Positions 3,857 to 61,111 of a stretch of DNA of 64,000 nt are shown here, piece after piece (within the stretch, counting starts at the first letter, position 1; each line of letters begins with the position of its first letter). Position numbers and translations under genes: made by a program. The notes beneath the pieces are model-generated. The model was given only the letters and a program-made list of their open reading frames with translations. It made no database searches and had not been told where the DNA came from. The stretch comes from an uncultured Muribaculaceae bacterium (lineage in GTDB: Bacteria; Bacillota_I; Bacilli_A; RF39; UBA660), in NCBI GenBank assembly GCA_964416365.1, contig CAYQDO010000001.1, positions 4,050-68,049 on the forward strand, written 5' to 3'.

Positions 3857-4738
3857 ATGATAAAGTTCTTAAAAAATGTGTCAATAATTTTACTTATAAT
3901 TTTAACTATCATAAAAAGACCAACAATAACTACCGCAATTATCGAAGCAATTAATATATGGATTACTAATATATTTCCATCTTTATTTCCAATTCTAATA
4001 ATAAGTGATCTAATTATCAGCACTGATCTAATTAATATTATTACTAATATTATCGGACCTTTTTTTTCTAAATTATTTAAAGTTAGTAAATATAGCTCCT
4101 ATGTATTTATAATGAGTCTGTTAAGCGGTTGCCCTAGCAATGCTAAATATACTAAGGATTTATTAGATTATAATTTAATTAGTAAAGAAGAAGCTATTAA
4201 AGTATTATCTATGTCTCTTTTATACAATCCAATATTAATTTTAACTATTACCAGTTATTTAAATAAAGAAGACTCTTGCTTTATCATTATAGCCAATATA
4301 ATAATAAACATAATTATTGGGATTATAAATCGCAAGTTTTATTGTCAAGTTAAACACAATGAAAAAATGTTAAACCGAAATTTTAATCTAATTTCTTCTA
4401 TATCTAAATCTATAGATACATTAATGTTAGTATTAGGCTCTTTAGCATTATTTATTGCTCTATCATCTATTATTCCTTATAGTCATCCTTTGCTAGATGG
4501 AATATTTGAAATAACCAATGGCATTAAAGAAATAGTCTTTATTGAAAACTATAACTATCAACTATTATTTACCGGCATCCTTATGTCTTTTGGGGGCTTC
4601 AGTATTCAAACCCAAATAAAAAGTATTCTAAAAGATTATAACTTAGAATACAGTTTATTTTATAAATCAAGAATTATTCATCTAGCTTTATTTATATTAA
4701 CTTTGTACCTGAAAGTGATATTTAGTATCATTAGTTAA
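3857..4738 (+). CDS. polytopic membrane protein, YlbJ-like (nucleoside-recognition/Gate-domain type)
   Basis: 293 aa and highly hydrophobic. Its position next to the ylbL-like gene mirrors the Bacillus ylbJ-ylbL arrangement. Confidence 0.45.
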   Translation: MIKFLKNVSIILLIILTIIKRPTITTAIIEAINIWITNIFPSLFPILIISDLIISTDLINIITNIIGPFFSKLFKVSKYSSYVFIMSLLSGCPSNAKYTKDLLDYNLISKEEAIKVLSMSLLYNPILILTITSYLNKEDSCFIIIANIIINIIIGIINRKFYCQVKHNEKMLNRNFNLISSISKSIDTLMLVLGSLALFIALSSIIPYSHPLLDGIFEITNGIKEIVFIENYNYQLLFTGILMSFGGFSIQTQIKSILKDYNLEYSLFYKSRIIHLALFILTLYLKVIFSIIS

Positions 4739-5344
4739 ATTCGTAATCTGAAAGTTAATATTTTTCTTATAAACATAGCTTAAATGAATACCAAAATCTT
4801 CGCCATCTTCATTTAAAACCGGTAAATCAATTCTTAAAGAACAATGATCAGTACCACAATTTTGTTTATAGGTTCCATAACCTTCATATAAAAATGGTGT
4901 CTCTCTTAAATATCTCTTACTACCCCTACGATAACCAACAATATTGACTTGTTCAGTATCAGAGTATCCATAAGAATAATATAGTAAATAGCCAATATTT
5001 TCGCTAGTATTTAAAGAATCGTATATCAGCTTTAAGCAATGCCCTTCTCCATTTCGCAGTGAAGAAGATGCAGGTATAACCGATAAAACCGTATCTTTAC
5101 GATCTGGCATCGTCGCGCCATCATTACATGAAGCTATTCCTACTAAACCTAAATCAATAAAATCATTTTCAATTTCTTTAATTATATTAGCTTGATTCAT
5201 AAGTAATGTCGAAGTAATTCTACTTCTTTCATCTTCATTACGGACCGTAATTAAAACCGATATTAAAAATATTAAAATGATTGAAATTAAAGTAACTCCG
5301 ACAATAATTTCCACTAAAGTCATTCCCTTATTATTCTTTATCAT
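4697..5344 (-). CDS. type IV pilin-like minor pilin (pseudopilin) with a prepilin leader
   Basis: N-terminus MIKNNKG|MTLVEIIVGVTLISIIL: Gly at -1, Glu at +5, then a hydrophobic helix, which is the class III signal. Its start ATGA overlaps the ftsW stop. Confidence 0.7.
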   Translation of the reverse strand: MIKNNKGMTLVEIIVGVTLISIILIFLISVLITVRNEDERSRITSTLLMNQANIIKEIENDFIDLGLVGIASCNDGATMPDRKDTVLSVIPASSSLRNGEGHCLKLIYDSLNTSENIGYLLYYSYGYSDTEQVNIVGYRRGSKRYLRETPFLYEGYGTYKQNCGTDHCSLRIDLPVLNEDGEDFGIHLSYVYKKNINFQITNLTNDTKYHFQVQS

Positions 5345-6483
5345 TTTAATACCTCTTTGACTTTTTGTTCATGAATCTCAATTTGAACTCTTTGAGTTAA
5401 AAATAGCATAAAGATAATATTGATATAAAATGAACCACCATAACTTAAGAATGGTACTGGTACTCCAGTTAAAGGAATAAAAGCCATGATTCCTAAAAAA
5501 TTGACTAATAAATGTAATAAAATAAATGCAAAAGTTCCATAAGCAATAATTGAGCCCCGAAGACTATTAGCGTTTTTAGCAATTTTTAAAATACGATATA
5601 ACATAATTAAATATAATATTAGAATAATGATTCCACCAATGGCACCCCATTCTTCAACAACAACCGGAAAAATGAAATCCGTATAAGCTTCTGGTAAGTA
5701 TAAATATTTTTGCGTAGAATTTCCTAATCCAGCACCGGTTAAACCACCATTACTGATTGCAATAAAACCGTTACATACTTGATACCCAGTTTTTTCCGTG
5801 TATCTAGTACATGGATTTCGATAAGTTAAACGGCTATTTTGTTCAGCTGTTAGATGCCCACCAAATACTAGAATTGCAAAACAAGCAATTACGGTAATAA
5901 CTCCCGCAATTTTTAGACCTCGAACTTTTTTGTTATTAAAAGGTAAAGCCATAAATATTAAAAATGCTATTCCCCCTATTATACAAGCTGTTCCTAAATC
6001 AGGCTGTAAAATAGTTAATCCACAAATTAATAAAATAAAAATAAAAGGCACAATAATTTTATTGACAGAAAAGCTCTCACTGCGAGATATTTTATCAAGA
6101 CTTACTGCTAAAAAAACGATAATAATTGATTTAGCAAACTCACTTGGCTGAAAAGAAAAGAATCCCAAGTCATACCAACTACTTGCACTATTAGTAATAG
6201 TTCCATATGGAAATAAACCTATCAAGGCAAGGACAATAAAGATAATTCCTACCGGACCCCAAAATTTATATTTTTGCGTAGGATAAAATAATACAAAAAA
6301 ACCAAATATCCAACTAGCAATAATAGCATATAAATGTTTAATAAAATAATGTCGTTCTGATACTCCATTATAAAGCACTGCGGTAATACTAGAAGCACTA
6401 AAAATCATAATCAGACCAAAAATAGTAAAAAGTACCATTAGAAAAAAAAGCGTTTTGTCAATCTTTTTTAATTTAGCCTTCAT
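5341..6483 (-). CDS. ftsW: SEDS-family peptidoglycan glycosyltransferase (FtsW/RodA/SpoVE)
   Basis: 380 aa with about 10 TM segments and a SEDS-like conserved core (e.g. GLTGAGLGNS, PVPFLSYGGS). Confidence 0.8.
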   Translation of the reverse strand: MKAKLKKIDKTLFFLMVLFTIFGLIMIFSASSITAVLYNGVSERHYFIKHLYAIIASWIFGFFVLFYPTQKYKFWGPVGIIFIVLALIGLFPYGTITNSASSWYDLGFFSFQPSEFAKSIIIVFLAVSLDKISRSESFSVNKIIVPFIFILLICGLTILQPDLGTACIIGGIAFLIFMALPFNNKKVRGLKIAGVITVIACFAILVFGGHLTAEQNSRLTYRNPCTRYTEKTGYQVCNGFIAISNGGLTGAGLGNSTQKYLYLPEAYTDFIFPVVVEEWGAIGGIIILILYLIMLYRILKIAKNANSLRGSIIAYGTFAFILLHLLVNFLGIMAFIPLTGVPVPFLSYGGSFYINIIFMLFLTQRVQIEIHEQKVKEVLK

Positions 6484-6557: not shown

Positions 6558-6687
6558 CTTTGGTAAATTGCGCTATTCTTTTTTCTAATTTATTACTTCT
6601 TCTAAATTTTAATAAATAATAAGTAGTAAAGACTAATATGAGTACTACAACTAATACTATAATTACAATTATTAGTTTTTCTTTCAT
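6558..6687 (-). CDS. small membrane peptide (~43 aa) translationally coupled to the upstream ParA-like gene
   Basis: The ATG at 6687 overlaps the TAA stop of the 6687..7421 ORF (TAATG), and its RBS AGGAGGAG lies inside the upstream gene's last codons. Translation: MKEKLIIVIIVLVVVLILVFTTYYLLKFRRSNKLEKRIAQFTKD. Confidence 0.4.
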
Positions 6688-7421
6688 TACTCCTCCTTAT
6701 TAATTAAAGACTTCGCAATTAAATTAAATATTTTATAATCAGGCCATTTTTGATTGTTGATAGTTAAAACTTCTCCCTTAAAAGTGGTATTATCGATATC
6801 ATTATAATTAAAACGATTACTAATCGTATAATCAATATTATTTTGTAAAATATTTTTAATATCATATAAAAAATAATATTCTCTATTAAAATGGATACTA
6901 TAATTTAATATAACATTTATATCTTTACAAAACTTCTTTAAATACTCTAAATTAATACGAGAATTTTTTAAATCCAAGGCATCATTAGTAATAATATAAA
7001 ATACTGTATTCATTTTTTTTAGTAAAGATTCATTAAAACTATTTAAGACATGATTAGTATCAAAAAGAATCACATCATAAAGTAAATAAGCTTCTGATAT
7101 AAGTCCATCTATACAAGAAAAAGTTATTTCTTTAGCTTCCTCAATACTATCTGGAGCAGAAAGAAAATCAATGTAATTGTTATATTTAACTATATAATCC
7201 TTTATATCTGGAAACTTTTCTTTACTAAATTCTTTATAATAATCATAAATTGTTTTTCGAGACTTTTTATTTAAAGCTACGGCTATTCCACCATTAAATA
7301 AATCAGTATCTACAATTAAAACCTTTTTCTTTTGATTAGAAATTGTTCCTGCTAAATTTAATATAAAAGTAGTTTTACCAACGCCACCTTTACCTGAAAA
7401 TACACTTGCTACTTTACTCAT
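6687..7421 (-). CDS. ParA/MinD-family P-loop ATPase (CpaE/TadZ-like or MinD-like)
   Basis: Deviant Walker A SGKGGVGKTT near the N-terminus, 244 aa. Confidence 0.65.
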   Translation of the reverse strand: MSKVASVFSGKGGVGKTTFILNLAGTISNQKKKVLIVDTDLFNGGIAVALNKKSRKTIYDYYKEFSKEKFPDIKDYIVKYNNYIDFLSAPDSIEEAKEITFSCIDGLISEAYLLYDVILFDTNHVLNSFNESLLKKMNTVFYIITNDALDLKNSRINLEYLKKFCKDINVILNYSIHFNREYYFLYDIKNILQNNIDYTISNRFNYNDIDNTTFKGEVLTINNQKWPDYKIFNLIAKSLINKEE

Positions 7422-7806
7422 CTTGTACCTCTTTTATTATTATATTTTCACCATCTTTGTGGCCAATAAAATTAACATCACATCGATAATAATTTACTCC
7501 AATTAATTTTCCAAAAAAACTGGTATAAGGATGGCTATTAGAAATTGTTAAATCTCCATCCTCTTCATTATATTGTACGGTTAGTACGTCTGTTGATATT
7601 TTATTTTTTTCAAAAAATTCTTTAATATCCTCATAATAATCATCTTTAGAATATGTTAAAGTATCTTTGATAATTTTCTTAGTAGTTAATTCTACTCTAG
7701 TATTTTGAATAAACATTAGGGCAAAATCAAAGATAAATGCTATAATCAGCATAAAAATTGGAATCAATATAACAAAAATCCATTGATTAACCTTATACTT
7801 ATGCAT
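7414..7806 (-). CDS. small membrane-anchored protein with TadE-like topology
   Basis: 130 aa with an N-terminal hydrophobic helix followed by a soluble domain. A candidate extended -10 (TGATATAAT) and the RBS GGTAGGAAG lie upstream at about 7807-7870. Confidence 0.3.
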   Translation of the reverse strand: MHKYKVNQWIFVILIPIFMLIIAFIFDFALMFIQNTRVELTTKKIIKDTLTYSKDDYYEDIKEFFEKNKISTDVLTVQYNEEDGDLTISNSHPYTSFFGKLIGVNYYRCDVNFIGHKDGENIIIKEVQDE

Positions 7807-7872: not shown

Positions 7873-9519
7873 TTAACTAACCCTAAAAGGATTAGTTAAT
7901 GAACCTTCTCCGGTAACGATAGTCGATGATGAAATATTAATTACTGGTCTTAAATATGTTAATCGATCTATTCGATTACTATATAGTTTTCCACTGTCTC
8001 CTACATAAAAAATATTTGGTAAAAAATCATCATCATACATGACGTAAGATGTCATAGTCCAATTGTATCTATTAATATATAAATAATTATATGAATTATC
8101 TATATCATAAACTAATCCTGCCATCAATGCTTCATCTGCCGTTAATAATCCTACTGGATATATTAATGCGCCATTACCTTTACTCTCATCATTTACCGTA
8201 AAACGATCATTTTTGAAACCACAATGTAGAGTAGGTTTTACAGTATAAAACGATAGTCTAAAATGAGCAGCATATCTAGTATCAATTTCTGCACCATACC
8301 CAGGACCAGTTGCTTCTCCTCCTATTTCACTTTGTAGTTGGCGATCATTACAAAACAAAGTATCAACTATTTCATTTTCAAAAGATTGATTTAATATATT
8401 TGTCTCATACCATGTATCTAATTGTATTTTAGTATTACTTGAAGTTTCATTTCTTACTGCTTCTTCTCTTGACGTTGATGCACTTCCGTTCTCTCCACCA
8501 TACATATAGCCCAAATATTTAACATCATCATTATAATCACTCCAAGAAAATTTATCATAAAGCTTAGGATTTGTTCCAACATCATTCATAGTTTCATATT
8601 GATTGAATTCTTCTTCTGTACCATTATATATTAATCTAATAGAGCCATCACCATTAATACGAATGATTTTCCATTGAAAGCCACCAAATAAAAGATTGTT
8701 ATTTAAATATTCTTTATCTCCACGATAATAATAACTTACTCCATAGTCGTCAACTGTTGCATATAGACCATTTTCTACAGTAGCTACCGATTTTATAAGA
8801 CTTCCTTCTTCACCAGTTTCCGGCAATAAAACATATGTGCTTTGAGAAACAGCTACCTTTGAAAAATCAGGATTACCTTTTGCTCTGATGGTTATTTCTC
8901 CACCATCTTGAGATAATATTTTGTTTTTTAAACAGTTTTCTTCTTTGCATGGATCGACATATGTTTCAACTGTAATATAAGCATTGATTTCTTTTTCTTT
9001 ATCATCATCTTGAATATATGGGGCATTTAAAAAATAAATCTCTAAGGTATAAGTATGAATTTTACTTCCACCCGTTGGTGAAGTAAATATACCATGACCT
9101 AGACTTATTATTTTAGCTCCAGTTCCGATATTATTTAAATTATCGGTATCGGGAATTACAGCTCCATTATTACTAGTGTTCTCACTTATTAATTTATATT
9201 TTATAGCTGATTCACTGAAAGTATTAGATTCTACTACTAGATTAACTTGATAATTCATATCAAAAGGTGTTGTATTATCTCCGGTTATAGTAAATATTTT
9301 AATGCTTACTGGATCATTAGTAGGAATTATGTTATTTACTTTGATATTTGCCCCACCATTATAAGCAATTTTCATTTTACCGCCAGAAATAGTAATCGTA
9401 TCTATTGTTTCAGCATCTTCAAAATTAGCTGTAAAATAAGCATAAGAAATCCCAATTGACACTAATAAAACAATAAAAATTCCTAATAAAATTATAACTG
9501 TTTTTTTAATCATATACAT
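7873..9519 (-). CDS. large secreted protein, paralog A, with a SipW-cognate-type signal and TasA/camelysin-like N-terminal domain, a divergent C-terminal half and a conserved C-terminal tail
   Basis: Signal peptide ...LLVSIGISYA|YFTANFED resembles the TasA GTWA|AFND class. Residues up to about 315 are near-identical to paralog B. The C-terminal tail is LRPVINISSSTIVTGEGSLTNPFRVS. Confidence 0.6.
   Translation of the reverse strand: MYMIKKTVIILLGIFIVLLVSIGISYAYFTANFEDAETIDTITISGGKMKIAYNGGANIKVNNIIPTNDPVSIKIFTITGDNTTPFDMNYQVNLVVESNTFSESAIKYKLISENTSNNGAVIPDTDNLNNIGTGAKIISLGHGIFTSPTGGSKIHTYTLEIYFLNAPYIQDDDKEKEINAYITVETYVDPCKEENCLKNKILSQDGGEITIRAKGNPDFSKVAVSQSTYVLLPETGEEGSLIKSVATVENGLYATVDDYGVSYYYRGDKEYLNNNLLFGGFQWKIIRINGDGSIRLIYNGTEEEFNQYETMNDVGTNPKLYDKFSWSDYNDDVKYLGYMYGGENGSASTSREEAVRNETSSNTKIQLDTWYETNILNQSFENEIVDTLFCNDRQLQSEIGGEATGPGYGAEIDTRYAAHFRLSFYTVKPTLHCGFKNDRFTVNDESKGNGALIYPVGLLTADEALMAGLVYDIDNSYNYLYINRYNWTMTSYVMYDDDFLPNIFYVGDSGKLYSNRIDRLTYLRPVINISSSTIVTGEGSLTNPFRVS
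8649..9449. repeat. copy 1 of an ~800-bp near-identical direct repeat (the 5' coding halves of the two paralogs)
   Basis: Sequence from about 8649 to 9449 recurs almost base-for-base at about 10371 to 11172, an offset of about 1722 bp. Confidence 0.8.
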
Positions 9520-9586: not shown

Positions 9587-11236
9587 TTAAATTACTCGAA
9601 ATGGATCAGTCGTTGTCCCTGTTCCTGATACTATAGTATCAGAGGTTAGTGAAATACTGGCGCGAACTCCGTTGGAGTAATTCACGGCGTTATTGCCTAA
9701 ATATCCAGGCAAGTAAACAAAGAAAACGTATGCATTGCCACCTGAACTGCCCGGTGATAAAAGCCACCAGTTTTTGCTTGTATATAAATAATTTGTTGTA
9801 TTAGTTTTACCATTCACTAATCCCGCCAAGGCGGCTTCATCAGCAGTTATTAATCCGATTGGATAGGTTAATGCTCCATTTCCTATTGTTGTATCTGCTG
9901 AGGTTGTAAATCGATCATTTTTTAAGCCACATTTTAAAGTTGGAGTTTTATAATCAATTAAACGATAATACGCCGCATAATTTATATATACTCCTGTATT
10001 ACCATGTCCTGGGCCAGTTGCTACGCCTCCTACTTCACTTTCAAGTTGACGATCGTTACAAAATAAGTTATTTACCACTTGTGATTCAAATGATTTATCA
10101 GATATATTTGTTTGATACCAGTTGTCTAAGACAGTTTTGACATTTGTTGATGTTTCATTATATGTTGCAACTACTGAGGTTGTACCATTTCTTACTGTTG
10201 ATGCTACGCCATTTGCTCCGCCATACATATATCCCACATATTTAGCATCATTATTATAAGTAACATTCCAAGCTGATAAATCTATTTGAGTATTTTCACC
10301 AACATCATTCATTGTTTCATTTTGATTAAATTCCTCTTCTGTGCCATTATAAATAAGTCTGATTGAACTATCACCATTAATACGAATGATTTTCCATTGA
10401 AAGCCACCAAATAAAAGATTGTTATTTAAATATTCTTTATCTCCACGATAATAATAACTTACTCCATAGTCGTCAACTGTTGCATATAGACCATTTTCTA
10501 CAGTAGCTACCGATTTTATAAGACTTCCTTCTTCACCAGTTTCCGGCAATAAAACATATGTGCTTTGAGAAACAGCTACCTTTGAAAAATCAGGATTACC
10601 TTTTGCTCTGATGGTTATTTCTCCACCATCTTGAGATAATATTTTGTTTTTTAAACAGTTTTCTTCTTTGCATGGATCGACATATGTTTCAACTGTAATA
10701 TAAGCATTGATTTCTTTTTCTTTATCATCATCTTGAATATATGGGGCATTTAAAAAATAAATCTCTAAGGTATAAGTATGAATTTTACTTCCACCCGTTG
10801 GTGAAGTAAATATACCATGACCTAGACTTATTATTTTAGCTCCAGTTCCGATATTATTTAAATTATCGGTATCGGGAATTACAGCTCCATTATTACTAGT
10901 GTTCTCACTTATTAATTTATATTTTATAGCTGATTCACTGAAAGTATTAGATTCTACTACTAGATTAACTTGATAATTCATATCAAAAGGTGTTGTATTA
11001 TCTCCGGTTATAGTAAATATTTTAATGCTTACTGGATCATTAGTAGGAATTATGTTATTTACTTTGATATTTGCCCCACCATTATAAGCAATTTTCATTT
11101 TACCGCCAGAAATAGTAATCGTATCTATTGTTTCAGCATCTTCAAAATTAGCTGTAAAATAAGCATAAGAAATTGAGATAGATACTATCAGTATTAAAAT
11201 CAAACCTAACAAATATAAAATAATTTTATTTTTCAT
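9587..11236 (-). CDS. large secreted protein, paralog B, with the same N-terminal TasA-like domain, a different C-terminal half and a conserved C-terminal tail
   Basis: The track ORF starts at a TTG at 11281. The likely start is the ATG at 11236 (MKNKIILYLLG...ISYAYFTANFED). The C-terminal tail is GVRASISLTSDTIVSGTGTTTDPFRVI. Confidence 0.6.
   Translation of the reverse strand: MKNKIILYLLGLILILIVSISISYAYFTANFEDAETIDTITISGGKMKIAYNGGANIKVNNIIPTNDPVSIKIFTITGDNTTPFDMNYQVNLVVESNTFSESAIKYKLISENTSNNGAVIPDTDNLNNIGTGAKIISLGHGIFTSPTGGSKIHTYTLEIYFLNAPYIQDDDKEKEINAYITVETYVDPCKEENCLKNKILSQDGGEITIRAKGNPDFSKVAVSQSTYVLLPETGEEGSLIKSVATVENGLYATVDDYGVSYYYRGDKEYLNNNLLFGGFQWKIIRINGDSSIRLIYNGTEEEFNQNETMNDVGENTQIDLSAWNVTYNNDAKYVGYMYGGANGVASTVRNGTTSVVATYNETSTNVKTVLDNWYQTNISDKSFESQVVNNLFCNDRQLESEVGGVATGPGHGNTGVYINYAAYYRLIDYKTPTLKCGLKNDRFTTSADTTIGNGALTYPIGLITADEAALAGLVNGKTNTTNYLYTSKNWWLLSPGSSGGNAYVFFVYLPGYLGNNAVNYSNGVRASISLTSDTIVSGTGTTTDPFRVI
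10371..11172. repeat. copy 2 of the ~800-bp direct repeat
   Basis: Same as above. Identity breaks immediately 5' of ...gcataagaaat and 3' near ...tcaccattaatacg. Confidence 0.8.
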
Positions 11237-11284
11237 ATTTACCACTAGTATAATCATATCATTTTTCAAACTCAAAAACAATAA

Positions 11285-16742: not shown

Positions 16743-17207
16743 TTATGGCGTTGGCGTTGTAAATGATGTTGGGCAAGTATCGTTAATAGTCGTACTTGCT
16801 CCGGAAAAATTCGCTGGAGTTGATAATTTAGCATAAGTATAATCTTTAACACTAAAATATGTATCAGTTAAAGAAACATAAAATGTTGGTTTAAGTTTTG
16901 CATCTATAGTTACGATAACATAACCATGATATTGTGATGATTCACCCATCTCTAAATCGCTTCTTAAACTGTAACAGTATCCGTAAGTTTTTGAACGCTC
17001 ACTAGTTGTACCTAATAATATATCAGCTTGGTATGATTCTTGAGCTTTATTTAGTACTTTTTCGGCATAGATTTTAAATGTGCCTCTTTGAGCATCGCTC
17101 ATAGTGCTCATGACAGAAGGAATGGCAATAATCATAATTATTGCTAGAACAACCATAACTGCTAATAATTCTACGAGGGTAAAACCTTTATTATTTAACC
17201 TTACCAT
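16743..17207 (-). CDS. type IV pilin (ComGC/PilA-like major pilin)
   Basis: From the internal ATG at 17207: MVRLNNKG|FTLVELLAVMVVLAIIMIIAIP, a canonical prepilin leader with Glu at +5, preceded by an AGGAG RBS. Mature protein is about 147 aa. Confidence 0.8.
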   Translation of the reverse strand: MVRLNNKGFTLVELLAVMVVLAIIMIIAIPSVMSTMSDAQRGTFKIYAEKVLNKAQESYQADILLGTTSERSKTYGYCYSLRSDLEMGESSQYHGYVIVTIDAKLKPTFYVSLTDTYFSVKDYTYAKLSTPANFSGASTTINDTCPTSFTTPTP

Positions 17208-17229
17208 ATATACTCCTATCTTCTGCTTT

Positions 17230-21317: not shown

Positions 21318-21455
21318 TAATCTAATTCCTCCTCCTTATCAATGAAGACTCGCCCGAAAGGTGGGATATCATCCTCTTGTACCTCTTTAGTGCGGTTTAT
21401 AAATTAATTACAAACATAAGAATATTATCAAAAAAAATGGGTAAAGTCAAGAAAA
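21318..21455 (-). promoter_or_regulatory. possible rplU leader element (GC-richer structured segment)
   Basis: A locally GC-rich stretch (gaagactcgcccgaaaggtgggatatcatcctcttg) lies upstream of rplU, where Firmicutes carry an L21 leader. The structure was not verified. Confidence 0.2.
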
Positions 21456-24400: not shown

Positions 24401-24826
24401 TTAATAGCTTGACATTATTAAATTATTAAGACTAATTAAAACTTTTTCTGAACCATTAAGCATAGCTTCTTCGTATTCTATTAAAGCTTTAATTAGAGCT
24501 TCATCATTAATTGTAATATTTCTCATATAGTAATTAATATTTTGGGTAGTTAAATATTTTTCCATTTTACTAATAACTTTATCATTGGTTAAAATACTAT
24601 AATAAACCCGATAGACATCCTCATCTGTAACTATGATTGAATCTTCATATTTTTCCTTTAATTTTTTAGCTCCATCTTCGTTATTAAAAACACCTATTTG
24701 AAATGCTTTGGCATTTATAGTATTAGCAAAAACTTCTTTCAAATCAAAATCAGCATCTTGAAATAAAAGATAACCAAAAGATACACCTAATATTAAAGAT
24801 AGTAAATATGGGATAATTCTTTTCAT
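24401..24826 (-). CDS. secreted hypothetical protein
   Basis: 141 aa with a signal peptide. Confidence 0.4.
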   Translation of the reverse strand: MKRIIPYLLSLILGVSFGYLLFQDADFDLKEVFANTINAKAFQIGVFNNEDGAKKLKEKYEDSIIVTDEDVYRVYYSILTNDKVISKMEKYLTTQNINYYMRNITINDEALIKALIEYEEAMLNGSEKVLISLNNLIMSSY

Positions 24827-24926: not shown

Positions 24927-24958
24927 ATAAAAAAAAGTAGAATTTCTTCTACTTTAAT
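24927..24958 (-). terminator. rho-independent terminator after the pilin / beta-propeller / micro-peptide operon
   Basis: On the minus strand, AAAGTAGAAGAAATTCTACTTT is followed by TTTTTTTATTTT. Confidence 0.6.
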
Positions 24959-24959
24959 T

Positions 24960-25079
24960 TTAAAACATTACAACGTTATAGATTAAATATGCAATTAATA
25001 TACCTACTATAATCGTAATAACTGTAACACCAAGGGCGAAAACAGTTTGTTTTCTCTGTCTTTTTTCTATTTCATCCAT
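24960..25079 (-). CDS. small membrane peptide (39 aa) coupled to the upstream gene
   Basis: The ATG sits 3 nt after the stop of the 25082..26932 gene. Translation: MDEIEKRQRKQTVFALGVTVITIIVGILIAYLIYNVVMF. Confidence 0.35.
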   Translation of the reverse strand: MDEIEKRQRKQTVFALGVTVITIIVGILIAYLIYNVVMF

Positions 25080-25081
25080 TA

Positions 25082-26932
25082 TTAGTTATTTATATAATAT
25101 CCTGTATTATATAAATTGCCCTCCCACTCAATTAGAATTAAATTTTTTCCAGTACCTTTCTTTAAATTAACAGAACAATCATTTACTTCGTAAACATAAC
25201 CTTTACCATATTCATCAAGTAAGACAACATTATAATCTTCTTCATAGAACATGATTTTTAATTTATTACCGGATAATTCAAACGGAATTGAGTATAAAAT
25301 AGCCTTTTCAAATTTAGCGGCATAATCTGTTTCTGTATAAGAATCACTTAATTGCTCTGCTGAGAAGCTATTCGGCATTACTTTTTCAAAAGTGTAATCT
25401 TCATCAAATATTGGCATTTTACTTACATAGTTGTAAGTATTAGAAACAGTCATTTTAAATATTTCTTCATCACCTTTTAAAGTAATGATTGTTGAATAGA
25501 AGTCACCTTCATCACTTAAAATGCATTCACTCATATCTGTATGGAATCCTCTGAAATCACGACCAAACATAATAGTTTTTTCATTTTCTTTAGTATAATA
25601 ATCACCAAAAGTGAAACTAAAGAAATTATCTCCATAACGCCAATCTTCAATAATAGTTTTTTTACTAGAATCTATTGTATAATCATTAGCAGTAGATTTT
25701 AAATCAGCTGCTTTAGCGCAAGACCAAGTATTTGTTAAATCCCAACCATTATTCATTAAAGTTAATTTATTATTATTTAATTTAGCATTGAAATTTCCTT
25801 TTGGATAAACAAAATTAGCATCAGTTGATTTTAATAAATATTTATTAAATTTTGCTGAATAGTAATCTGGATTAGCTAAAATCCAATTAATTTTACCATT
25901 CAAATCCATATTAATTAAAGTACTGGAATAATAAATTCCTACTAAAACACTCTCACTTGATTCATCGTAATATAAAGCATTAATATATCCAAAATTATCT
26001 TTTACACTATTCATATGAGCAGAATCTATTTCTGATAACATCGCAAATATATCATATGTCTTTTCTACTTCACCAGTTTTTAGATTGAACTGTATAACCT
26101 TTTCATCTGCTGTAGAATATAAAATTTTATTATTTGGAATTTCTGTATAATTATGAAAATATGGATTTGCTAGTTCATATGAGTTATACACTTTTCCTAA
26201 TAAATCAATTTCCAATAAACCTAAAGCTTTATCTTCCAATGCTTCTGGACTAGCAAGTAATAAATGACCATTTTCTAATCTAGTTAATTGTTTATACACT
26301 TGATTAGTTAATAACCATCTTATTTCACCTTTTTGATCAAAAGCAGCAGCAGTGTGCCCAACTGGTGTTGAAAGGAAGTAAAAATCATTGTCGTTTGCAT
26401 CTAATTTACTAGTAATAATTTCAATATCCGGAAAATAAATTGAATTATATAAACTTGGACTTTCTATCGGAATACTAATCGTGTTATTAGTTCCATCATT
26501 TAATTCTAATATAATTTGATTATTATAGTCCATATATAAACCATAAATAGGAATGTAATGAACAGTTTGTTCTTTAGTATAATAAATCAAATCTTTTCCT
26601 TCGTCTTTACCTTTAACAGTTATTTTAACATTTGTTTTAGTAGACGTTTTAAATCCTACTAACGCAGTAAGCGGAGATATCTCATAAGGATTAACAACAA
26701 TAAGTGGATTAGATATTGTATAATCGCCATTTTCTATTTTAGTTAGAAATTCTGTATCCATATCATCTTGATTAGAAACTAGATTAATATTATTTTTTAA
26801 TAAGTTGTATTCATCAAAGGAATATAGTTTTTCTTTTTGTGAAATTACCTTGTCTTTGAAAATAAAAGCTAAAATGACAGTTATTAAAATAAGAACAACG
26901 GTAACTAGTATCACTAAATTCTTTCTCTTCAT
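25082..26932 (-). CDS. membrane-anchored beta-propeller-like protein, possibly arylsulfotransferase (ASST) family
   Basis: 616 aa, N-terminal signal anchor, repeated beta-rich units and an AHMNSV motif reminiscent of the ASST active-site His. Family assignment is tentative. Confidence 0.35.
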   Translation of the reverse strand: MKRKNLVILVTVVLILITVILAFIFKDKVISQKEKLYSFDEYNLLKNNINLVSNQDDMDTEFLTKIENGDYTISNPLIVVNPYEISPLTALVGFKTSTKTNVKITVKGKDEGKDLIYYTKEQTVHYIPIYGLYMDYNNQIILELNDGTNNTISIPIESPSLYNSIYFPDIEIITSKLDANDNDFYFLSTPVGHTAAAFDQKGEIRWLLTNQVYKQLTRLENGHLLLASPEALEDKALGLLEIDLLGKVYNSYELANPYFHNYTEIPNNKILYSTADEKVIQFNLKTGEVEKTYDIFAMLSEIDSAHMNSVKDNFGYINALYYDESSESVLVGIYYSSTLINMDLNGKINWILANPDYYSAKFNKYLLKSTDANFVYPKGNFNAKLNNNKLTLMNNGWDLTNTWSCAKAADLKSTANDYTIDSSKKTIIEDWRYGDNFFSFTFGDYYTKENEKTIMFGRDFRGFHTDMSECILSDEGDFYSTIITLKGDEEIFKMTVSNTYNYVSKMPIFDEDYTFEKVMPNSFSAEQLSDSYTETDYAAKFEKAILYSIPFELSGNKLKIMFYEEDYNVVLLDEYGKGYVYEVNDCSVNLKKGTGKNLILIEWEGNLYNTGYYINN

Positions 26933-26943
26933 TTTTTCACCCC

Positions 26944-28659
26944 TTATCCTACTCTAAATGGATCAGATGTTGTACCTGTTCCGCCAGTAATTTTCGTGTT
27001 AGAATTTAAAACTATTACCGGTCTAACTCCTGTCTTTTGACCACTATTATCAACTTTAGTAACTCCTCCTGTAGTATACAAGCTATATGCTCCTATAGCT
27101 TCTGCAACATTACCGTTACCGTCAACATATAAAGTAGTATTATAGTGTGGGTATGCCCTTCTGTTAAAACTGCTACTACCTGCTACACTGACACTGCTTG
27201 TAGATAATACTTTTTTACGATAATATGTCCCTAAGCCCCAAGTTGCACCAAAATTTAGATAATTGGAATTACAAGAAAATGTAGAACAATTAGCTATTTT
27301 ACTATAATCAGCATATGACAATAAACCAATTCTACTAGTCATAGTATCGTTTACTGAACTACCATATCCTTTAAGATCATAAGTTGCATTTTTAAGATAA
27401 GTACTATAATTAGCTAGGGTTGTTAAATAAGTATTTAAAAAAGTTAATAAACCATTAGGATTTTGGGTTAACAAATAATATGTATTTTCACTACTCAATC
27501 CATAACCTGAATTACAACAAGATGATGGACTACAATACCATCTTTCAGTATGATTTGAAAATGCATAATTGCCAATAGAAGTATTTAAAATTAAACCAAT
27601 ACTGTTATCTGGATATAGCTTAAATATACGCCAAGTTTTATTGGAATACGAAACATAATTACCTGTTTGCGGTCCTATATAATAACAAGAATTATCAGAT
27701 TGATCAGTACAATTATTATCATCACTAATTACTTGAGCGACATTGTCCATAACTTGATAACTAAATGTAGTTGTTGGAACTGAACCATCACTATTTTGTC
27801 TAGTATAAGTAACTGTTCTTGTAAAAGTACTAGCTGTATTTGTCGCAACACTATCAATTGAATAATCTGCAGTAGATAAATTAGTCGTTTGACCATATCT
27901 GTTTATTCCTTGTACAGTAACAGTTATTGGACTATTAATAACTACTTTAGTAGGAGATACTGTAGCTGTTATTGTAACAATATCGTTCATTGAGGGTGAA
28001 ACTATTAATGATCTATTAAGCTCTTTATTAATAGAACTTTCTGGCAACTTATAAGTATAGGTTATTGTATAAGTTCCTGGTCTTGTAATATCAACATTAC
28101 ATGTCGCACTAAGGATAACTTCATTAATACTTACACTTGTATTTACTGTACCATCAGTATTTACTAATCTTAATGCTGGTGTCCCCCAATCAGATGCATA
28201 ACTAGATATCTGATCACATGCAAAACTTTGATTATAATCAATAATCTTATTTTGAGTTTCCAAATATGACTCAGTTACAGTTTCAGCTGGATAATCAAAT
28301 CTAACTATACCACTTGCATCTAAAGTGGCTTTGACAAAGTCTTCTTCACTAGTTGCTCCAATTTTTTCTCCAGTTTGAGGATTTACTAAATTTTCATCTA
28401 ATAGTCCCTCTTCAATTAAATCGGCAACTTTAATAACCAAATATCCTCGATCAGTTTGTAATTGATTTAAAAGTGTGGTATTACCTGATAAATAAGCATC
28501 AGCCGAACTGACAATTTTATTTATTAAAGTGTCATAGTCTTCATTTTTGTTTTTATCAAAAACCTTATTAAGACCAACACCCACTACTAAACCAATGGCA
28601 ACTAGTATTACTAAGGAAATTACTACTTCAATTAAAGTAAAGCCATTTTTCTTCATCAT
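26944..28659 (-). CDS. giant modular type IV pilin (prepilin leader plus a ~540-aa C-terminal module ending in the conserved tail)
   Basis: Start ATGATGAAG at 28659 follows the RBS AGGAAGGTGAAG. MMKKNG|FTLIEVVISLVILVAIGLVV is a canonical class III signal. The C-terminal tail is GVRPVIVLNSNTKITGGTGTTSDPFRVG. The track ORF extends spuriously to 28800. Confidence 0.75.
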   Translation of the reverse strand: MMKKNGFTLIEVVISLVILVAIGLVVGVGLNKVFDKNKNEDYDTLINKIVSSADAYLSGNTTLLNQLQTDRGYLVIKVADLIEEGLLDENLVNPQTGEKIGATSEEDFVKATLDASGIVRFDYPAETVTESYLETQNKIIDYNQSFACDQISSYASDWGTPALRLVNTDGTVNTSVSINEVILSATCNVDITRPGTYTITYTYKLPESSINKELNRSLIVSPSMNDIVTITATVSPTKVVINSPITVTVQGINRYGQTTNLSTADYSIDSVATNTASTFTRTVTYTRQNSDGSVPTTTFSYQVMDNVAQVISDDNNCTDQSDNSCYYIGPQTGNYVSYSNKTWRIFKLYPDNSIGLILNTSIGNYAFSNHTERWYCSPSSCCNSGYGLSSENTYYLLTQNPNGLLTFLNTYLTTLANYSTYLKNATYDLKGYGSSVNDTMTSRIGLLSYADYSKIANCSTFSCNSNYLNFGATWGLGTYYRKKVLSTSSVSVAGSSSFNRRAYPHYNTTLYVDGNGNVAEAIGAYSLYTTGGVTKVDNSGQKTGVRPVIVLNSNTKITGGTGTTSDPFRVG

Positions 28660-28895
28660 CTTCACCTTCCTATTATTTATATAATACCAAATTTTATTTT
28701 GATAAACAATACATAATAAAAAAATAATGGGATTATTCCATAATTTATGAGCAACTCCACTGTGTTCTATCTTGGGATAAACTTGATAAAGCTGTTGCAC
28801 TTTAATCCATTAAAGACGGCACAAGCTAAATGACTTACATTTACAACATTATACTATATATTAAGTTAATTTATTATATCAATTTTTTTAAACAT

Positions 28896-28925
28896 TTAAA
28901 AACCACACTACTCGTGTGGTTAATT
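28896..28925 (-). terminator. rho-independent terminator after proS
   Basis: On the minus strand, AACCACACgagtaGTGTGGTT is followed by TTTTAAATGTTT. Confidence 0.7.
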
Positions 28926-34199: not shown

Positions 34200-34480
34200 G
34201 CCTTCTTTCTTTTAAAAAAAGTTATAAATGTAAGGGCGAAGAATCGCGGTACCACCTTACCTTTATAACTTATTGCTTATATTTAACGCATATAAACGAT
34301 TTTTCTCCACTGCAACCTTCTTATAATCTAGCTATTAGCTCCCACCAAATACTAACTCTCTTTAAACTATTATATAATACTCCTCAGCTTCACTGAAAAC
34401 TACCATAATTATATAAGAATAAATAAAAATAATCAAGTTTTAAGTTGATTAACCCTGTCGTTTGGGTTATAATTAAGTGA
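34200..34480 (-). promoter_or_regulatory. T-box riboswitch leader upstream of valS
   Basis: The minus strand carries an AGAGAG box, GGTGGGAGCTAATA, the F-box GCGTTA, and the T-box AGGTAAGGTGGTACCGCG followed by a T-run before the RBS. The candidate specifier is GUU. Confidence 0.65.
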
Positions 34481-34503: not shown

Positions 34504-35850
34504 ATGGTTCAAGATTTTTCGAATGAAGAAGTCATTTTCGATGCTGAACAACTAACTAACACAACAAATTCAAACTTAGTTAGTTTCAACTATGAAGAAA
34601 CCCCTATTACTGAAATCGTTAATATGATTATTTTGGATGCTATTAAGAATAATGCATCTGATATTCATTTTGATCCCACCGGGAATGAACTACGAATTAG
34701 AATTAGAATAGATGGAACACTTTATGACTACAGTTATGTTCCATTATATGTTCAAAAAAATATGATTACCAGAATCAAAATTATAGCTGGTATGAATATT
34801 ACTGAATCAAGAACTCCTCAAGATGGTGCTATTAAAAATAATCTTGAAAATACCAATGTCGATCTTCGTGTTTCGAGTTTACCAACGAACCTTGGAGAAA
34901 AAATCGTTATTCGTATTTTAGACTATTCCATGAGTTCAGCGGGAATTGAACAACTTGATTTCAACAAAGCTAACCTTGATAAAGTGTATAAAATGATTGC
35001 TGAACCAAATGGTATTATTTTAGTTACTGGTGCTACAGGTACTGGTAAATCTACTACAGTATATGCAATATTACAAAGACTGAATACGGAAGATCGTAAT
35101 ATTATTACCGTTGAAGATCCAATTGAAATGAATATTGGGGGAATCAATCAAGTTCAAGTTATTTCTGATATTGGTTTAACTTTTGCCAATGTTTTAAGAA
35201 GTATGTTAAGACAAGACCCCGATATTATCATGATTGGTGAGGTTCGAGATGATGAAACTGCTAGAATCGCCGTTCGTGCTTCAATAACCGGACACTTGGT
35301 ACTATCAACTATTCATACCAATAATTCATTAAATACCATAGAAAGATTATTAGATATGGAAGTTGAACGTTATCTGTTAGGATCTGCTTTAACTGGTATT
35401 ATTTCTCAAAAACTAGCTAGAAGACTTTGTAAGAAATGTCGTGGTTCCAGACTTACCAATGAATATGAAAAAAATGTTTTTAAAAAAGCATTAAATATTG
35501 ATGTAGATAAAATTTACGTGCCGGTTGGATGTCCGGAATGTCATAATGGCTATAAAGGAAGATTAGCTATTCATGAAGTCTTAAGAATTAATCAAGAAAT
35601 TCAGGATGCCATTACTAGAGATACAGACAAAACAACTTTAAGAAAACTGGTTTACTCTTCCGGAACAATTACGATGCTTCAAGATGGTTTAGCCAAAGTT
35701 ATTGAAGGTGAAACCACTTTTGAAGAAATAATAAAATTAATTGATTTAGAAGATGATTTAGGTACTGATACTAATTTAGGATTAGAAGAAACAATTGAAG
35801 ATAGTATAATCAATAATGAAAATAGAGATTACGATTTCTTAGAAATGTAA
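34504..35850 (+). CDS. type IV pilus / type II secretion family ATPase (PilB/GspE/ComGA-like), lacking the N1 domain
   Basis: Walker A GATGTGKST, Asp box, Walker B DPDIIMIGEVRD, His box GHLVLSTIHTN, and a tetra-Cys zinc motif CKKCRG...CPECHNGYKGR. 448 aa. RBS AGGAGG. Confidence 0.85.
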   Translation: MVQDFSNEEVIFDAEQLTNTTNSNLVSFNYEETPITEIVNMIILDAIKNNASDIHFDPTGNELRIRIRIDGTLYDYSYVPLYVQKNMITRIKIIAGMNITESRTPQDGAIKNNLENTNVDLRVSSLPTNLGEKIVIRILDYSMSSAGIEQLDFNKANLDKVYKMIAEPNGIILVTGATGTGKSTTVYAILQRLNTEDRNIITVEDPIEMNIGGINQVQVISDIGLTFANVLRSMLRQDPDIIMIGEVRDDETARIAVRASITGHLVLSTIHTNNSLNTIERLLDMEVERYLLGSALTGIISQKLARRLCKKCRGSRLTNEYEKNVFKKALNIDVDKIYVPVGCPECHNGYKGRLAIHEVLRINQEIQDAITRDTDKTTLRKLVYSSGTITMLQDGLAKVIEGETTFEEIIKLIDLEDDLGTDTNLGLEETIEDSIINNENRDYDFLEM

Positions 35851-46324: not shown

Positions 46325-48085
46325 TTAAGTCTCGTTATTAGTTTTTAAATATATCGACACATATCCGCATCGATGCTTTTCATAATAACCGGTATTTTCT
46401 AATTCAGTCATCAAAGTCATATTATCAAAATTTCTTAAATCTACAACCATATAATCAGTTTTATGCTTGGATGGATACATATAAACAGTTTCATATTTAC
46501 TTAAATATGGTGTTAAATATGTCGTTGCAGTTATTGTCGCATTTTTGGGAAGTAAATCTAAACATGCCCTAGTTTGATTATGTGGTTCGGGATTCTTAAT
46601 TTGATAAGTAACAAACTTATAATAATTTAAATTTATGTCTAAATAAAGTGCCGAAACAAAACTTAACATTAGCAAAATAGTTTTGTTCTTATGATTCATA
46701 TTAGAAATATTCATAATCATGGCGTAAAATATCAAAGCCACTATTCCATAAGTATATTGAAAATCAGGATTATATTGATAGACATAACCTGGCATTAAAT
46801 TAATTACCAGAATCGGTGCTAAAAGTAATAGATTGGAAATTTTCTTGTTCATAAATGGAATGAAAAAAACTGGTAATAGCATCCATAATAAAAATTCAAA
46901 TTTTCTCACACTTAATATTTGCGTAAACATAAAACCAAAGTTTAACATTAAAGTTTTAATTAGTCCTAAGAAACCAGATGATCCCCCAGAAAAATAATTA
47001 TTAAAACGATCGGTCATAATTTCTCCACCGTAAAGTTTAATTACACTTGTAGCAAATAAGAAATACATAGCTCCCACTAAAAAGATAAATAACCCTTTTT
47101 TGATAGTCTTTCGATCATAAAATGTTTTATATAAACCAATAAACATTATATATAATGCCGCATCCTCTTTAACCATTAGAGATAAAAACATAAAAATTAG
47201 CATCGGTATTTTTTGTTTGGTTTCTAAAAAATACCCGAACCATAACAATAAAGCTGTTAAAAACTTATTCTCATGAAAATCAAAGAATCCCCCTGCCGTA
47301 AGTGATGGATATAATAAATAGATAAATGCTATTAACAAAATATAGACATTATTTAATTTCTTTTGTTTTGCTAATAAGTAAATGGGATAAACACCAGAAA
47401 AAATAAATGCTGCTTGAATTACCAAAAGATATTCCGGACATCTGAATAGAAAGTACCCCGGCAACAATAAATAATATATTGGAGAAAAATGCACGGCAAA
47501 GTGGGACAAAAGCCCATCTCTTTCTAAAGTAGTTAAAGGTCTTCCCACTTTAGCCAGATATTCAAACATTTGCGCAAAAATCCCGAAATCATAGGTTGAA
47601 GCACCAAATCCTTGATAACGCATAATCGTATGACGAGCTAAAAAATAAGTAAATATTAGAAAACCTATACTGATTAGAGTTAGCAATAATTTGTCACTAA
47701 TTTTTATCTTTTGAATAGAAATTACATTATTAAATGCATAAAAGATCACAATGGCATTGAAAATAATAATTCCAAGCGTAAAATATAAATTATCATTATA
47801 ATTGAGCATTAATGTTACAGAAAAGACACAAACACTTAAAACTAATGCCCAAGCCGATCTTTTTTTTAATTGTTCTTTTTTACCAAAAAAGATAATTCCT
47901 AAAAAAAATAACAACCACATTAAAATGAATCCTGCTATATTTACTTCTTCTCCATAATCTAACCAATAAAACTGATTACTATTGAGTAATATTTGTACTG
48001 CGCTAGTCATAAAAAAAGAACTAAATATGGTAGTCAAAAAACTCTCGAGAATATATTTTTTATACTGCAAATATATCTTTTTCAT
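46325..48085 (-). CDS. polytopic membrane protein (DUF2079-like, putative glycosyl-lipid transferase-like)
   Basis: 586 aa with more than 12 TM segments. Confidence 0.4.
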   Translation of the reverse strand: MKKIYLQYKKYILESFLTTIFSSFFMTSAVQILLNSNQFYWLDYGEEVNIAGFILMWLLFFLGIIFFGKKEQLKKRSAWALVLSVCVFSVTLMLNYNDNLYFTLGIIIFNAIVIFYAFNNVISIQKIKISDKLLLTLISIGFLIFTYFLARHTIMRYQGFGASTYDFGIFAQMFEYLAKVGRPLTTLERDGLLSHFAVHFSPIYYLLLPGYFLFRCPEYLLVIQAAFIFSGVYPIYLLAKQKKLNNVYILLIAFIYLLYPSLTAGGFFDFHENKFLTALLLWFGYFLETKQKIPMLIFMFLSLMVKEDAALYIMFIGLYKTFYDRKTIKKGLFIFLVGAMYFLFATSVIKLYGGEIMTDRFNNYFSGGSSGFLGLIKTLMLNFGFMFTQILSVRKFEFLLWMLLPVFFIPFMNKKISNLLLLAPILVINLMPGYVYQYNPDFQYTYGIVALIFYAMIMNISNMNHKNKTILLMLSFVSALYLDINLNYYKFVTYQIKNPEPHNQTRACLDLLPKNATITATTYLTPYLSKYETVYMYPSKHKTDYMVVDLRNFDNMTLMTELENTGYYEKHRCGYVSIYLKTNNET

Positions 48086-48565: not shown

Positions 48566-49123
48566 TTAACTTACGCCGGCTTTTCCATCTACAACTATAT
48601 TTAAATGAATTTCACTACCCAAGGTATCATTGGGTAAATTATATATATCTGGATCAGCAACCCATACTTTTAATTCAAAAGCTTTGGACTGACCAGCTGC
48701 CAAATTACCTTGAAACACTTCCCCATCCGTAATTTCACTCAAAGTTCTAGGACCCGTATTATTAAAATCCACACGAATATAGGCATGATTTAATAACGTT
48801 CTATCCGTATAATCCGGATTGTCAGCTACATAAATTGTATAGCTATAAGGAACTGTACCAGTATTTTGAATAGCAAAAGTATATTCATTATCAGTTAGCA
48901 ATTCAGCTTCTACATCACTCATCGGTTCTATATCTTCGATATTAATGCTCGATCCGCCTGTGAAAGTAATTTGTAAATCACCCACTGTTAAAACCTGAGC
49001 ATTTACGTCTGTTTCAATATCCATAAACAAAGCATAGGAAGAACCCAAGATTGTAATTACCATAACCATAACAGTTATAGCAGAAATAATAAAACGCTTT
49101 CTTAATTGATTCCTTATATACAT
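48566..49123 (-). CDS. TasA/camelysin (peptidase M73)-family secreted protein with a SipW-cognate-type signal
   Basis: ...ITILGSSYA|LFMDIETDVNAQVLTVGDLQITF...IEPMSD...FAIQNTGT aligns with TasA GTWA|AFNDIKS...GTLDL...LKPGD...FQFENNGS. Confidence 0.6.
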   Translation of the reverse strand: MYIRNQLRKRFIISAITVMVMVITILGSSYALFMDIETDVNAQVLTVGDLQITFTGGSSINIEDIEPMSDVEAELLTDNEYTFAIQNTGTVPYSYTIYVADNPDYTDRTLLNHAYIRVDFNNTGPRTLSEITDGEVFQGNLAAGQSKAFELKVWVADPDIYNLPNDTLGSEIHLNIVVDGKAGVS

Positions 49124-61060: not shown

Positions 61061-61111
61061 ATATTTCAAATTAATTATATTTATGATAAAATTATATTAG
61101 AGTAAGTGATA

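Follow-up and report, generated by a model that had tools for sequence, protein, structure and literature searches.

The 64,000-nt stretch of DNA analyzed here, hereafter the window, comes from an uncultured Muribaculaceae bacterium (contig CAYQDO010000001.1 of assembly GCA_964416365.1, positions 4,050-68,049 of the forward strand; Genome Taxonomy Database (GTDB) lineage Bacteria; Bacillota_I; Bacilli_A; RF39; UBA660) and has a G+C content of 27%. On its (-) strand it carries a gene for a 571-aa prepilin, in which a pilin module is followed by two immunoglobulin (Ig)-like domains and a large C-terminal head. The product is probably a modular type IV pilin that serves as a pilus-borne adhesin, with an Ig stalk and a lectin-like head, and its gene appears to be coupled to that of a degenerate protein of the arylsulfate sulfotransferase (ASST) fold, hereafter the pseudo-ASST. 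We infer all of the steps that this entails, namely processing of the pilin, its incorporation into a filament, its location at the tip, adhesion, and interaction with the pseudo-ASST.

The prepilin and its domain architecture

The gene and the modules that it encodes are as follows. The domain boundaries were drawn from a full-length AlphaFold2 (AF2) model together with an alignment of the family (12 sequences); model confidence is given as the predicted local distance difference test score (pLDDT).

26944..28659 (-): gene of the modular prepilin, 571 aa and a stop codon
28662..28671 (-): Shine-Dalgarno sequence AGGAAGGTGA, read from the sequence, ahead of the ATG at 28659; another ATG is found at 28656
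28285..28659 (-): pilin module (residues ~1-125), with the leader MMKKNG, cleavage before Phe7, the helix alpha1N and a small portion of alpha/beta structure
28000..28272 (-): Ig-like domain 1 (residues ~130-220), with the conserved residues Cys148 and Cys187; AF2 pLDDT 78-87
27745..27987 (-): Ig-like domain 2 (residues ~225-305); AF2 pLDDT 82-90
26947..27744 (-): C-terminal head module (residues ~306-571), ~265 aa, with a DUF6273-like fold, a putative ligand-binding domain

The N-terminus of the protein, MMKKNG|FTLIE, consists of a hydrophilic leader ending in Gly, with Phe at position +1 and Glu at position +5, and the cleavage site is directly followed by the hydrophobic alpha1N segment of ~20 residues (FTLIEVVISLVILVAIGLVVGVGL). 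Two prepilin models match it above their cut-offs, PF07963 (N_methyl) with 24.4 bits for 21.2 and TIGR02532 with 19.6 bits for 16.3. Eleven relatives of the pilin, with 44-83% identity over the full length, all begin with MK..GFT, and both the motif MK(R/K)xG|FT(L/I)(V/I)E and the PF07963 match are found in 11 of the 12 family members. A six-frame scan of the 64 kb for G-[F/M]-[T/S]-x-x-E returned only three matches, each of them at the N-terminus of an open reading frame (ORF), so the prepilin motif is not a chance match. By these sequence criteria, 26944..28659 does encode a true prepilin, bearing a class III signal peptide.

The open frame extends beyond this N-terminus, to a GTG at 28800 (26944..28800 (-), 618 aa); starting at the internal ATG at 28659 yields the 571-aa protein, 47 codons shorter. 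The ATG is the true start because the starts of the orthologs agree with it and their upstream frames carry stops. At five ortholog loci the pilin begins with MK..GFT and the ribosome-binding site (RBS) is retained, GGAGG or GGTG motifs being found ahead of the starts, and at four of the five the upstream frame contains in-frame stops close to the start. It is hardly credible that the gene model is an annotation artefact, with translation from the upstream GTG and an internal leader, or an ORF that is not expressed: the frame does stay open to 28800, but the stops and the conserved RBS and MK..GFT of the orthologs, the promoter-like sites that the upstream stretch holds directly after the proS terminator, and the conservation of the pilin over its full length in 11 relatives all argue against it.

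An earlier note on this DNA had recognized a canonical prepilin leader (KKNG|FTLIE), an ORF over-extended by 47 codons with a good RBS at the true start, and a Thr/Ser-rich, beta-rich module. The two prepilin hidden Markov models, whose matches pass the curated cut-offs, the starts and stops of the orthologs together with AGGAAGGTGA, a Ser+Thr content of 24% in residues 31-571, and the beta-rich AF2 models of the pilin all agree with this description. The note had also named, among the things that would overturn it, an upstream start burying the leader inside the protein, to which the stops at four of the five ortholog loci run counter.

In the AF2 model, the pilin module comprises helices at residues 40-69, followed by strands to residue ~125, with pLDDT values of 55-78. 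A profile search of the PDB with this module gave no significant match, the best E values (0.63-0.66) being those of domain 1 of Geopilin (9egp_A) and of PilE1 (8pfb_G). In related metagenomes, the N-terminal ~110-130 residues are common to other large prepilins with differing C-terminal modules, which may be Flg_new repeats, leucine-rich repeats (LRR), Ig domains or the same head as here. The combination of a shared pilin module with varying effector modules supports a carrier-plus-effector logic for these proteins.

The assignment of the stalk rests on both sequence and structure. Matches to Big_3 and Bact_surface_Ig-like were obtained for 8 of the 12 family members (best E 1.8e-7), and the Foldseek matches of the stalk in the PDB are tandem Ig-like structures, including a chitinase Ig region, the Sap S-layer, cadherins, LigA, and a Big_3 structure determined by nuclear magnetic resonance (NMR). 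Three 647-aa orthologs (P0006, P0007 and P0011) harbor an extra repeat of ~77 aa at Ig-like domain 2, which is present twice; a varying number of Ig repeats between orthologs would be expected for the stalk of an adhesin. The earlier note had described a single module of ~540 aa after the leader. Its bulky C-terminal part stands, but the AF2 models, which it had proposed to build for this part, resolve it into three units, namely two Ig-like domains and a DUF6273-like (C-type-lectin-like) head. Such a multi-domain C-terminal part is like that of the modular pilins of monoderm bacteria, and the resemblance to bulky modular minor pilins that had been suggested is apt.

Modular pilins are a known class, with more than 260 architectures listed, and they illustrate how filaments as simple as those of type IV acquire new functions. 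To our knowledge, the published surveys of modular pilins count only modules already present in domain databases. The window protein has what defines the class, an N-terminal pilin module with extra domains that are not specific to type IV pilus biology, and it adds to it a new architecture, pilin plus two Ig-like domains plus DUF6273-like head, from an uncultured anaerobic-digester and landfill lineage of low-GC Bacilli. The function of modular pilins as adhesins is established for PilB and PilC of S. sanguinis, in which the pilin module is fused to a vWA domain and to a ConA-like lectin domain, respectively (Raynaud et al., 2021, PMC8179133; PMC9934059). Like these two proteins, the window pilin comes from a low-GC Gram-positive organism, is far larger than a major pilin, and combines a bulky effector, predicted to have a binding role, with a class III signal peptide and a pilin module of small size. 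Unlike them, its effector is made of two Ig-like domains and a DUF6273-like head, not of vWA or ConA-like domains, its gene lies outside any pil operon with a pseudo-ASST gene coupled downstream, and the protein is known here from sequence alone.

The head module and its family

In the full-length AF2 model, built from the 12-sequence alignment, the head reached pLDDT values of 40-70 only; that model was replaced for this region by a domain model from a 33-sequence alignment, with a pLDDT of 90.5 and a predicted template modeling score (pTM) of 0.88. When the latter was compared with the PDB using Foldseek, no solved structure was found with an E value below 0.68. Among predicted viral structures (BFVD), five of the top nine matches are named DUF6273, with TM-scores of 0.36-0.61, and the best match is a DUF6273 phage protein (E 7.9e-5, probability 1.0, TM-scores 0.47/0.61). 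Phage proteins with DUF6273 are the sole significant matches of the head in structure. This confident model indicates that the head shares the three-dimensional fold of DUF6273, a C-type-lectin-like domain that occurs in phage receptor-binding proteins and as the target of diversity-generating retroelements (DGRs) (PMC10743442).

At the sequence level the relationship is barely detectable. The heads of the pilin and its orthologs gave no Pfam match to DUF6273 (PF19789, gathering score 23.5 bits), and searches of Pfam, NCBIfam and PHROGs with the head returned no significant family. Related head domains come close to the gathering score or reach it, with 22.3 bits for a paralog in the window, 22.0 for P0153 and 23.5 for P0241, and in some family members the similarity to DUF6273 is confined to the last ~55 residues. 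Like the DUF6273 receptor-binding proteins of gut phages ('tentaclins') and DGR proteins (PMC10743442), which include its best structural matches, the pilin head has the C-terminal motif ..VRPVI.L......G.GT..PY; unlike them, it remains under the Pfam threshold, is ~100 residues longer and has Cys-rich insertions.

That the pilin might be a DGR variable protein was considered and rejected for this locus. In contrast to the DUF6273 variable proteins, its head is not hypervariable and its locus has neither template repeat nor reverse transcriptase in the window: apart from a 33-nt motif match to a paralog, no stretch of the pilin gene was found to recur there, and the window ORFs scanned (at least 90 aa) include no reverse transcriptase.

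The family to which the head belongs is very large, and the head is an independent domain that thousands of non-pilin proteins have in common with the pilin. With clusters defined at 50% identity, the head profile retrieved 8,209 cluster representatives at E <= 1e-3, and 3,480 at E <= 1e-10. Most of the head-domain proteins have leaders of the TasA/SipW type ('..SYAYF..'), prepilin leaders being found in 13 of the 149 top matches, and as many as 11 copies of the head are present in some giant surface proteins. Pilins, proteins with TasA/SipW leaders and giant surface proteins all display this family of more than 8,000 clusters, which is barely visible to Pfam and has a structural relationship to the receptor-binding domains of phages. 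It offers a starting point for defining a domain family and for seeking the ligands of these organisms.

Two tandem paralogs with TasA/SipW-type leaders (..ISYAYFTANFED) are encoded in the window at 7873..9519 (-) and 9587..11281 (-), with 548 and ~549-564 aa. The identity of their DNA is 100% over ~800 nt and falls to ~65% across the C-terminal head, a member of the same DUF6273-like family as the pilin head. This pattern looks like duplication or gene conversion in the recent past, accompanied by a swap of heads; an assembly artefact is also possible. Directly downstream of them lie genes for a ParA/MinD-like ATPase (6687..7421 (-)) and for a 130-aa protein with a weak TadE-like match (7414..7806 (-)), which may form an assembly or sorting set for the two paralogs.

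The locus, the pseudo-ASST and the micro-protein

Downstream of the pilin gene are the genes for the pseudo-ASST and for a micro-protein, and the features that delimit the three genes were identified on both sides.

28901..28921 (-): proS terminator-like hairpin, upstream boundary of the unit; 8-bp stem with 4 G-C pairs, then a T-run
28873..28900 (-): promoter-like site TTTAAA-16 nt-TG-TATAAT, a consensus match only (10/12 positions, with an extended -10 TG)
25082..26932 (-): 616-aa membrane-anchored protein of the ASST fold, with an N-terminal transmembrane segment; catalytically degenerate
24960..25079 (-): 39-aa single-pass transmembrane micro-protein; its ATG lies 2 nt past the pseudo-ASST stop
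24927..24955 (-): terminator-like hairpin AAAGTAGAA-GAAA-TTCTACTTT with a T-run, downstream boundary of the unit

The three genes are thus bracketed by two terminator-like hairpins, as the earlier note had proposed in placing them between the proS terminator and a downstream one. The first hairpin (28901..28921) has a dG of -11.7 kcal/mol and a z score of -3.5, and none of 200 shuffled sequences folded equally well; the second (24927..24955) has a dG of -10.4 kcal/mol and a z score of -1.85, and fails a consensus terminator scan, having too few G-C pairs. Promoter-like sites in the AT-rich region around 28873..28900 are not enriched relative to shuffled sequences and constitute weak evidence.

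The ATG of the pseudo-ASST gene is found 11 nt past the pilin stop. A gap of 8-11 nt with an embedded RBS separates the two genes in all ortholog loci examined, and the pair is present at every one of them, which accords with the operon-like unit of pilin and propeller genes that had been suggested. Independent metagenome contigs and metagenome-assembled genomes (MAGs) show the same succession of genes, namely proS, pilin, pseudo-ASST, micro-peptide, 141-147-aa protein, radC, mreC, mreD. The closest genome records are MAGs from anaerobic digesters and landfills, labelled Mollicutes or Bacilli bacterium. On one contig (L015), which begins within the pilin C-terminus, the pair is present and is followed by a serpin gene, not by the micro-peptide gene. 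The 141-aa protein of the window (24401..24826 (-)) has an N-terminal transmembrane segment and looks SPOR-like by eye (FQIGVF...YRVYY), with no Pfam match; it is kept between the micro-peptide gene and radC-mreC-mreD in those related loci that reach that far.

The fold of the 616-aa protein is well supported. It matches PF17425 with 65.5 bits and PF05935 with 124.4 bits (cut-offs 24.2), and the profile of its family matches E. coli AssT (3elq) with an E value of 5.9e-50; like AssT (PDB 3ELQ) and the canonical ASSTs of Firmicutes, it is predicted to consist of an N-terminal Ig-like beta-sandwich and a 6-bladed beta-propeller (PF17425 + PF05935). Its active site is a different matter. In the numbering of the E. 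coli AssT alignment, the catalytic residues are His252, His356, Asn358, Arg374 and His436, and the canonical Firmicutes homologs keep the motifs GGYHHD (His252), WFHNNS (His356), SGRHQD (Arg374) and SQHAA (His436). The window protein and its clade have Tyr (Tyr316) in place of His356, Tyr (Tyr334; Arg374-His375 becoming Tyr-Tyr) in place of Arg374 and Phe in place of His436, the canonical SQHAA reading GNFNA in the window protein; equivalents of His252 and Asn358 are retained there. His436 is transiently sulfated (sulfohistidine) while the other residues coordinate the sulfuryl group, and these residues are reported to be conserved in all known aryl sulfotransferases (PMC13426309). Because catalytic His436, His356 and Arg374 have given way to Phe, Tyr and Tyr, the product of 25082..26932 is predicted to be a pseudo-enzyme, not a sulfotransferase, and an active sulfotransferase was ruled out by the residue-level alignment.

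Of the tentatively arylsulfotransferase-like, membrane-anchored beta-propeller of the earlier note, the ASST fold, the transmembrane anchor and the coupling to the pilin gene thus hold, and the catalytic residues do not. Public records name the orthologs of this protein 'aryl-sulfate sulfotransferase'; the proteins that carry this name in the clade lack the catalytic histidine and are not to be counted as sulfotransferases in metabolic inference. Other differences from E. coli AssT concern localization, the window protein being membrane-anchored and AssT periplasmic and soluble, and genetic context, the window gene being followed by that of a transmembrane micro-protein and not by dsbL/dsbI, which follow assT at the E. 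coli locus.

The micro-protein has a charged N-terminus followed by a single transmembrane helix. Nine copies of it were found at other loci, with Thr22, Gly26, Tyr31 and Met38 invariant. Judging from this conservation at the protein level, the 39-aa ORF, already noticed as a transmembrane micro-peptide after the propeller gene, is a real gene. A coupling of the micro-peptide to the pilin was rejected, since the micro-peptide is found with the pseudo-ASST also at loci lacking a pilin and is sometimes duplicated. At one locus (L012, 10190..10660) two tandem copies lie downstream of the pseudo-ASST gene, and at two others (L005 and L006) there is one micro-peptide gene on each side of it (3030..3134 and 5036..5252 in L005).

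The latter two loci belong to a sister lineage, in which a distant pseudo-ASST (30% identity, also degenerate) occupies the same site between proS and radC without a pilin gene. Since both pseudo-ASST and micro-peptide genes are found at that site without the pilin, they constitute an older unit which the pilin joined in one lineage. A canonical ASST locus (P0132) has neither pilin nor micro-peptide.

The probable pilus adhesin and its alternatives

If the 571-aa protein is a pilus-borne adhesin, its biogenesis would begin along the standard pathway, with a prepilin peptidase that cuts after Gly6 and N-methylates Phe7. The alpha1N helix would then hold the pilin in the membrane until it is polymerized by a type IV filament machine, for which the window contains candidate parts.

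34504..35850 (+): PilB/GspE-like type IV filament ATPase, 448 aa, PF00437 419.7 bits; candidate assembly motor, outside the operon
16743..17213 (-): 156-aa prepilin MVRLNNKG|FTLVE, PF07963 32.9 bits and TIGR02532 29.6 bits; candidate major pilin, outside the operon
4697..5344 (-): 215-aa prepilin MIKNNKG|MTLVE, PF07963 23.5 bits; further pilin of the same genome

In such a machine, the ATPase might act as the motor and the 156-aa pilin provide the bulk subunit. The ~445 residues that follow the pilin module form the two Ig-like stalk domains and the ~265-aa head; because they cannot fit the filament shaft, the protein would most likely be a pilin of low abundance, displayed at the tip of the filament, where its head would bind an external ligand, e.g., a glycan or a surface molecule. 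The pilin gene would be co-transcribed and translationally coupled with that of the pseudo-ASST, and the propeller gene would in turn be coupled to the micro-protein gene. As the catalytic histidine is lost, the pseudo-ASST would act by binding or as a structural component rather than by sulfuryl transfer.

A similar organization, with a pilin module, a beta-rich linker or stalk, and a distal binding domain, has been described for the minor pilins of the CofB/TcpB type of type IVb (T4b) pili, which consist of pilin, beta-repeat and beta-sandwich domains and for which a tip location has been proposed (summarized in PMC8179133). These proteins belong to diderm T4b systems and have a trimeric initiator role, and no sequence or fold match links them to the window pilin.

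As for the candidate machine parts, the ATPase is matched best in NCBIfam by GspE and PilB, in either case with a score under the equivalog cut-off. Its gene is found at the same position in four related loci (L001, L009, L010 and L011), without an adjacent PilC or PilD gene. In the window it is an orphan gene divergent from the T-box-controlled valS, and its product does not have a long N-terminal domain. The gene of the 215-aa prepilin overlaps the stop of a rodA/ftsW-family gene (5341..6483). Two longer proteins, P0271 (553 aa) and P0233 (1001 aa), have the N-terminus of this prepilin and the same head module as the 571-aa pilin, and the 215-aa protein may be a head-less version of such longer relatives.

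Several observations weigh against a pilus-borne adhesin. Neither PilD (peptidase A24), the prepilin peptidase on whose presence in the genome the earlier note had made its reading depend, nor PilC (T2SSF) was found among the scanned window ORFs of at least 90 aa, and the pilin gene is an orphan among housekeeping genes (proS, radC, mreCD), outside any pilus operon. The globular part of the pilin module is modeled with moderate confidence and has no significant match to a solved pilin. The head is common on non-pilin proteins with TasA/SipW leaders, so that its presence alone would not imply a pilus; it also does not vary more than the other domains do, mean identity being ~50% in every domain, and its ligand is only putative. 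Lastly, the sister lineage has a pseudo-ASST at the same site without the pilin, so the pairing of the two genes may be only historical, and the functional case for their coupling is weakened.

Some of these points would be accounted for if the protein were a surface adhesin on a pilin-like anchor that is never polymerized, its signal and alpha1N being only a device for export and membrane anchoring and its Ig stalk and head projecting from the cell surface, or if it sat on a very short pseudopilus. Archaeal and monoderm proteins exist that use prepilin-type signals without forming pili. The orphan position of the gene, the failure to find PilC and PilD in the window, the display of the same head by many proteins with other types of leaders, and the fact that the gene of a related modular pilin (P0016) is likewise an orphan are in keeping with such an anchor. 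The neighborhood of the P0016 gene contains only a distant Tad-like cluster and is uninformative with respect to PilD and PilC. On the other hand, conservation within the family extends to Glu5 and the full length of alpha1N, two features that in established pilin biology serve filament assembly, and the window does encode a PilB/GspE-like ATPase and a small protein resembling a major pilin. An unpolymerized anchor is unlikely, even though it is the alternative that best withstands the evidence.

A functional unit of pilin, pseudo-ASST and micro-peptide, in which the propeller would be the monoderm counterpart of PilY1 and dock, chaperone or co-present the pilin during tip priming, seems less probable still. 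It would fit with the conservation of the 8-11 nt junction in orthologs down to 44% identity, with a pair that stays intact despite a differing downstream context (the serpin gene in L015), and with a loss of catalytic residues specific to the pseudo-ASST clade, as for a shift to a binding role. PilY1 is also a beta-propeller adhesin partner of minor pilins (PMC8179133), and PilY1/PilC of type IVa pili resemble the present case, by analogy only, in that a beta-propeller protein is encoded beside a minor pilin.

However, the propeller of the window is of the ASST family and not of IPR008707, without homology to PilY1/PilC, and it also occurs without pilin in the sister lineage. A Pfam scan of 25082..26932 with E values up to 0.1 returned the ASST domains and one spurious match, and no PilY1 domain (PF05567 / IPR008707). 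Furthermore, the pseudo-ASST of L005 and L006, which sits with its micro-peptides at the proS-radC site without a pilin, is already degenerate, which indicates that degeneration came first, independently of the pilin. A more elaborate proposal we regard as a long shot: a three-part surface module of wall-bearing Mollicutes-like Bacilli, new to description, in which the dead ASST fold would have been recruited as a non-catalytic, PilY1-like partner that docks or primes a lectin-headed tip pilin, with the micro-protein tuning anchoring. The literature search found no link between arylsulfotransferases and type IV pilins, and the sole element without precedent in the literature searched is that the pilin is constantly coupled to an ASST-fold protein that is catalytically dead, and to the micro-protein of the latter. 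The findings on the pilin and the pseudo-ASST leave current understanding standing.

It is very improbable that the protein acts as a minor pilin in a competence (Com) pseudopilus or in a system resembling type II secretion (T2SS), with DNA uptake or secretion as its role instead of adhesion: its N-terminus does match the ComGE, ComGF, ComGD and GspG models weakly, and the ATPase matches the ComGA model below its cut-off (265.9 bits for 300), but the former matches span only the shared N-terminal helix and are far under the equivalog cut-offs, no comG-type operon is present in the window, and the 445-aa Ig stalk and lectin-like head have no counterpart in Com systems, whose minor pilins are small, or in T2SS.

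Other genes in the window encode further surface-protein machinery. Four of them (48566..49123 (-), 46325..48085 (-), 61106..62755 (+) and 63563..63943 (-)) code for a camelysin/M73-like protein, a DUF2079 membrane protein and two sortase-domain proteins, and the gene content suggests that the organism invests heavily in surface fibers and adhesins. No tRNA gene was found in the 64-kb window, and the only Rfam matches at gathering score are a T-box leader upstream of valS (34229..34402 (-)) and an L21 leader upstream of rplU (21336..21408 (-)).

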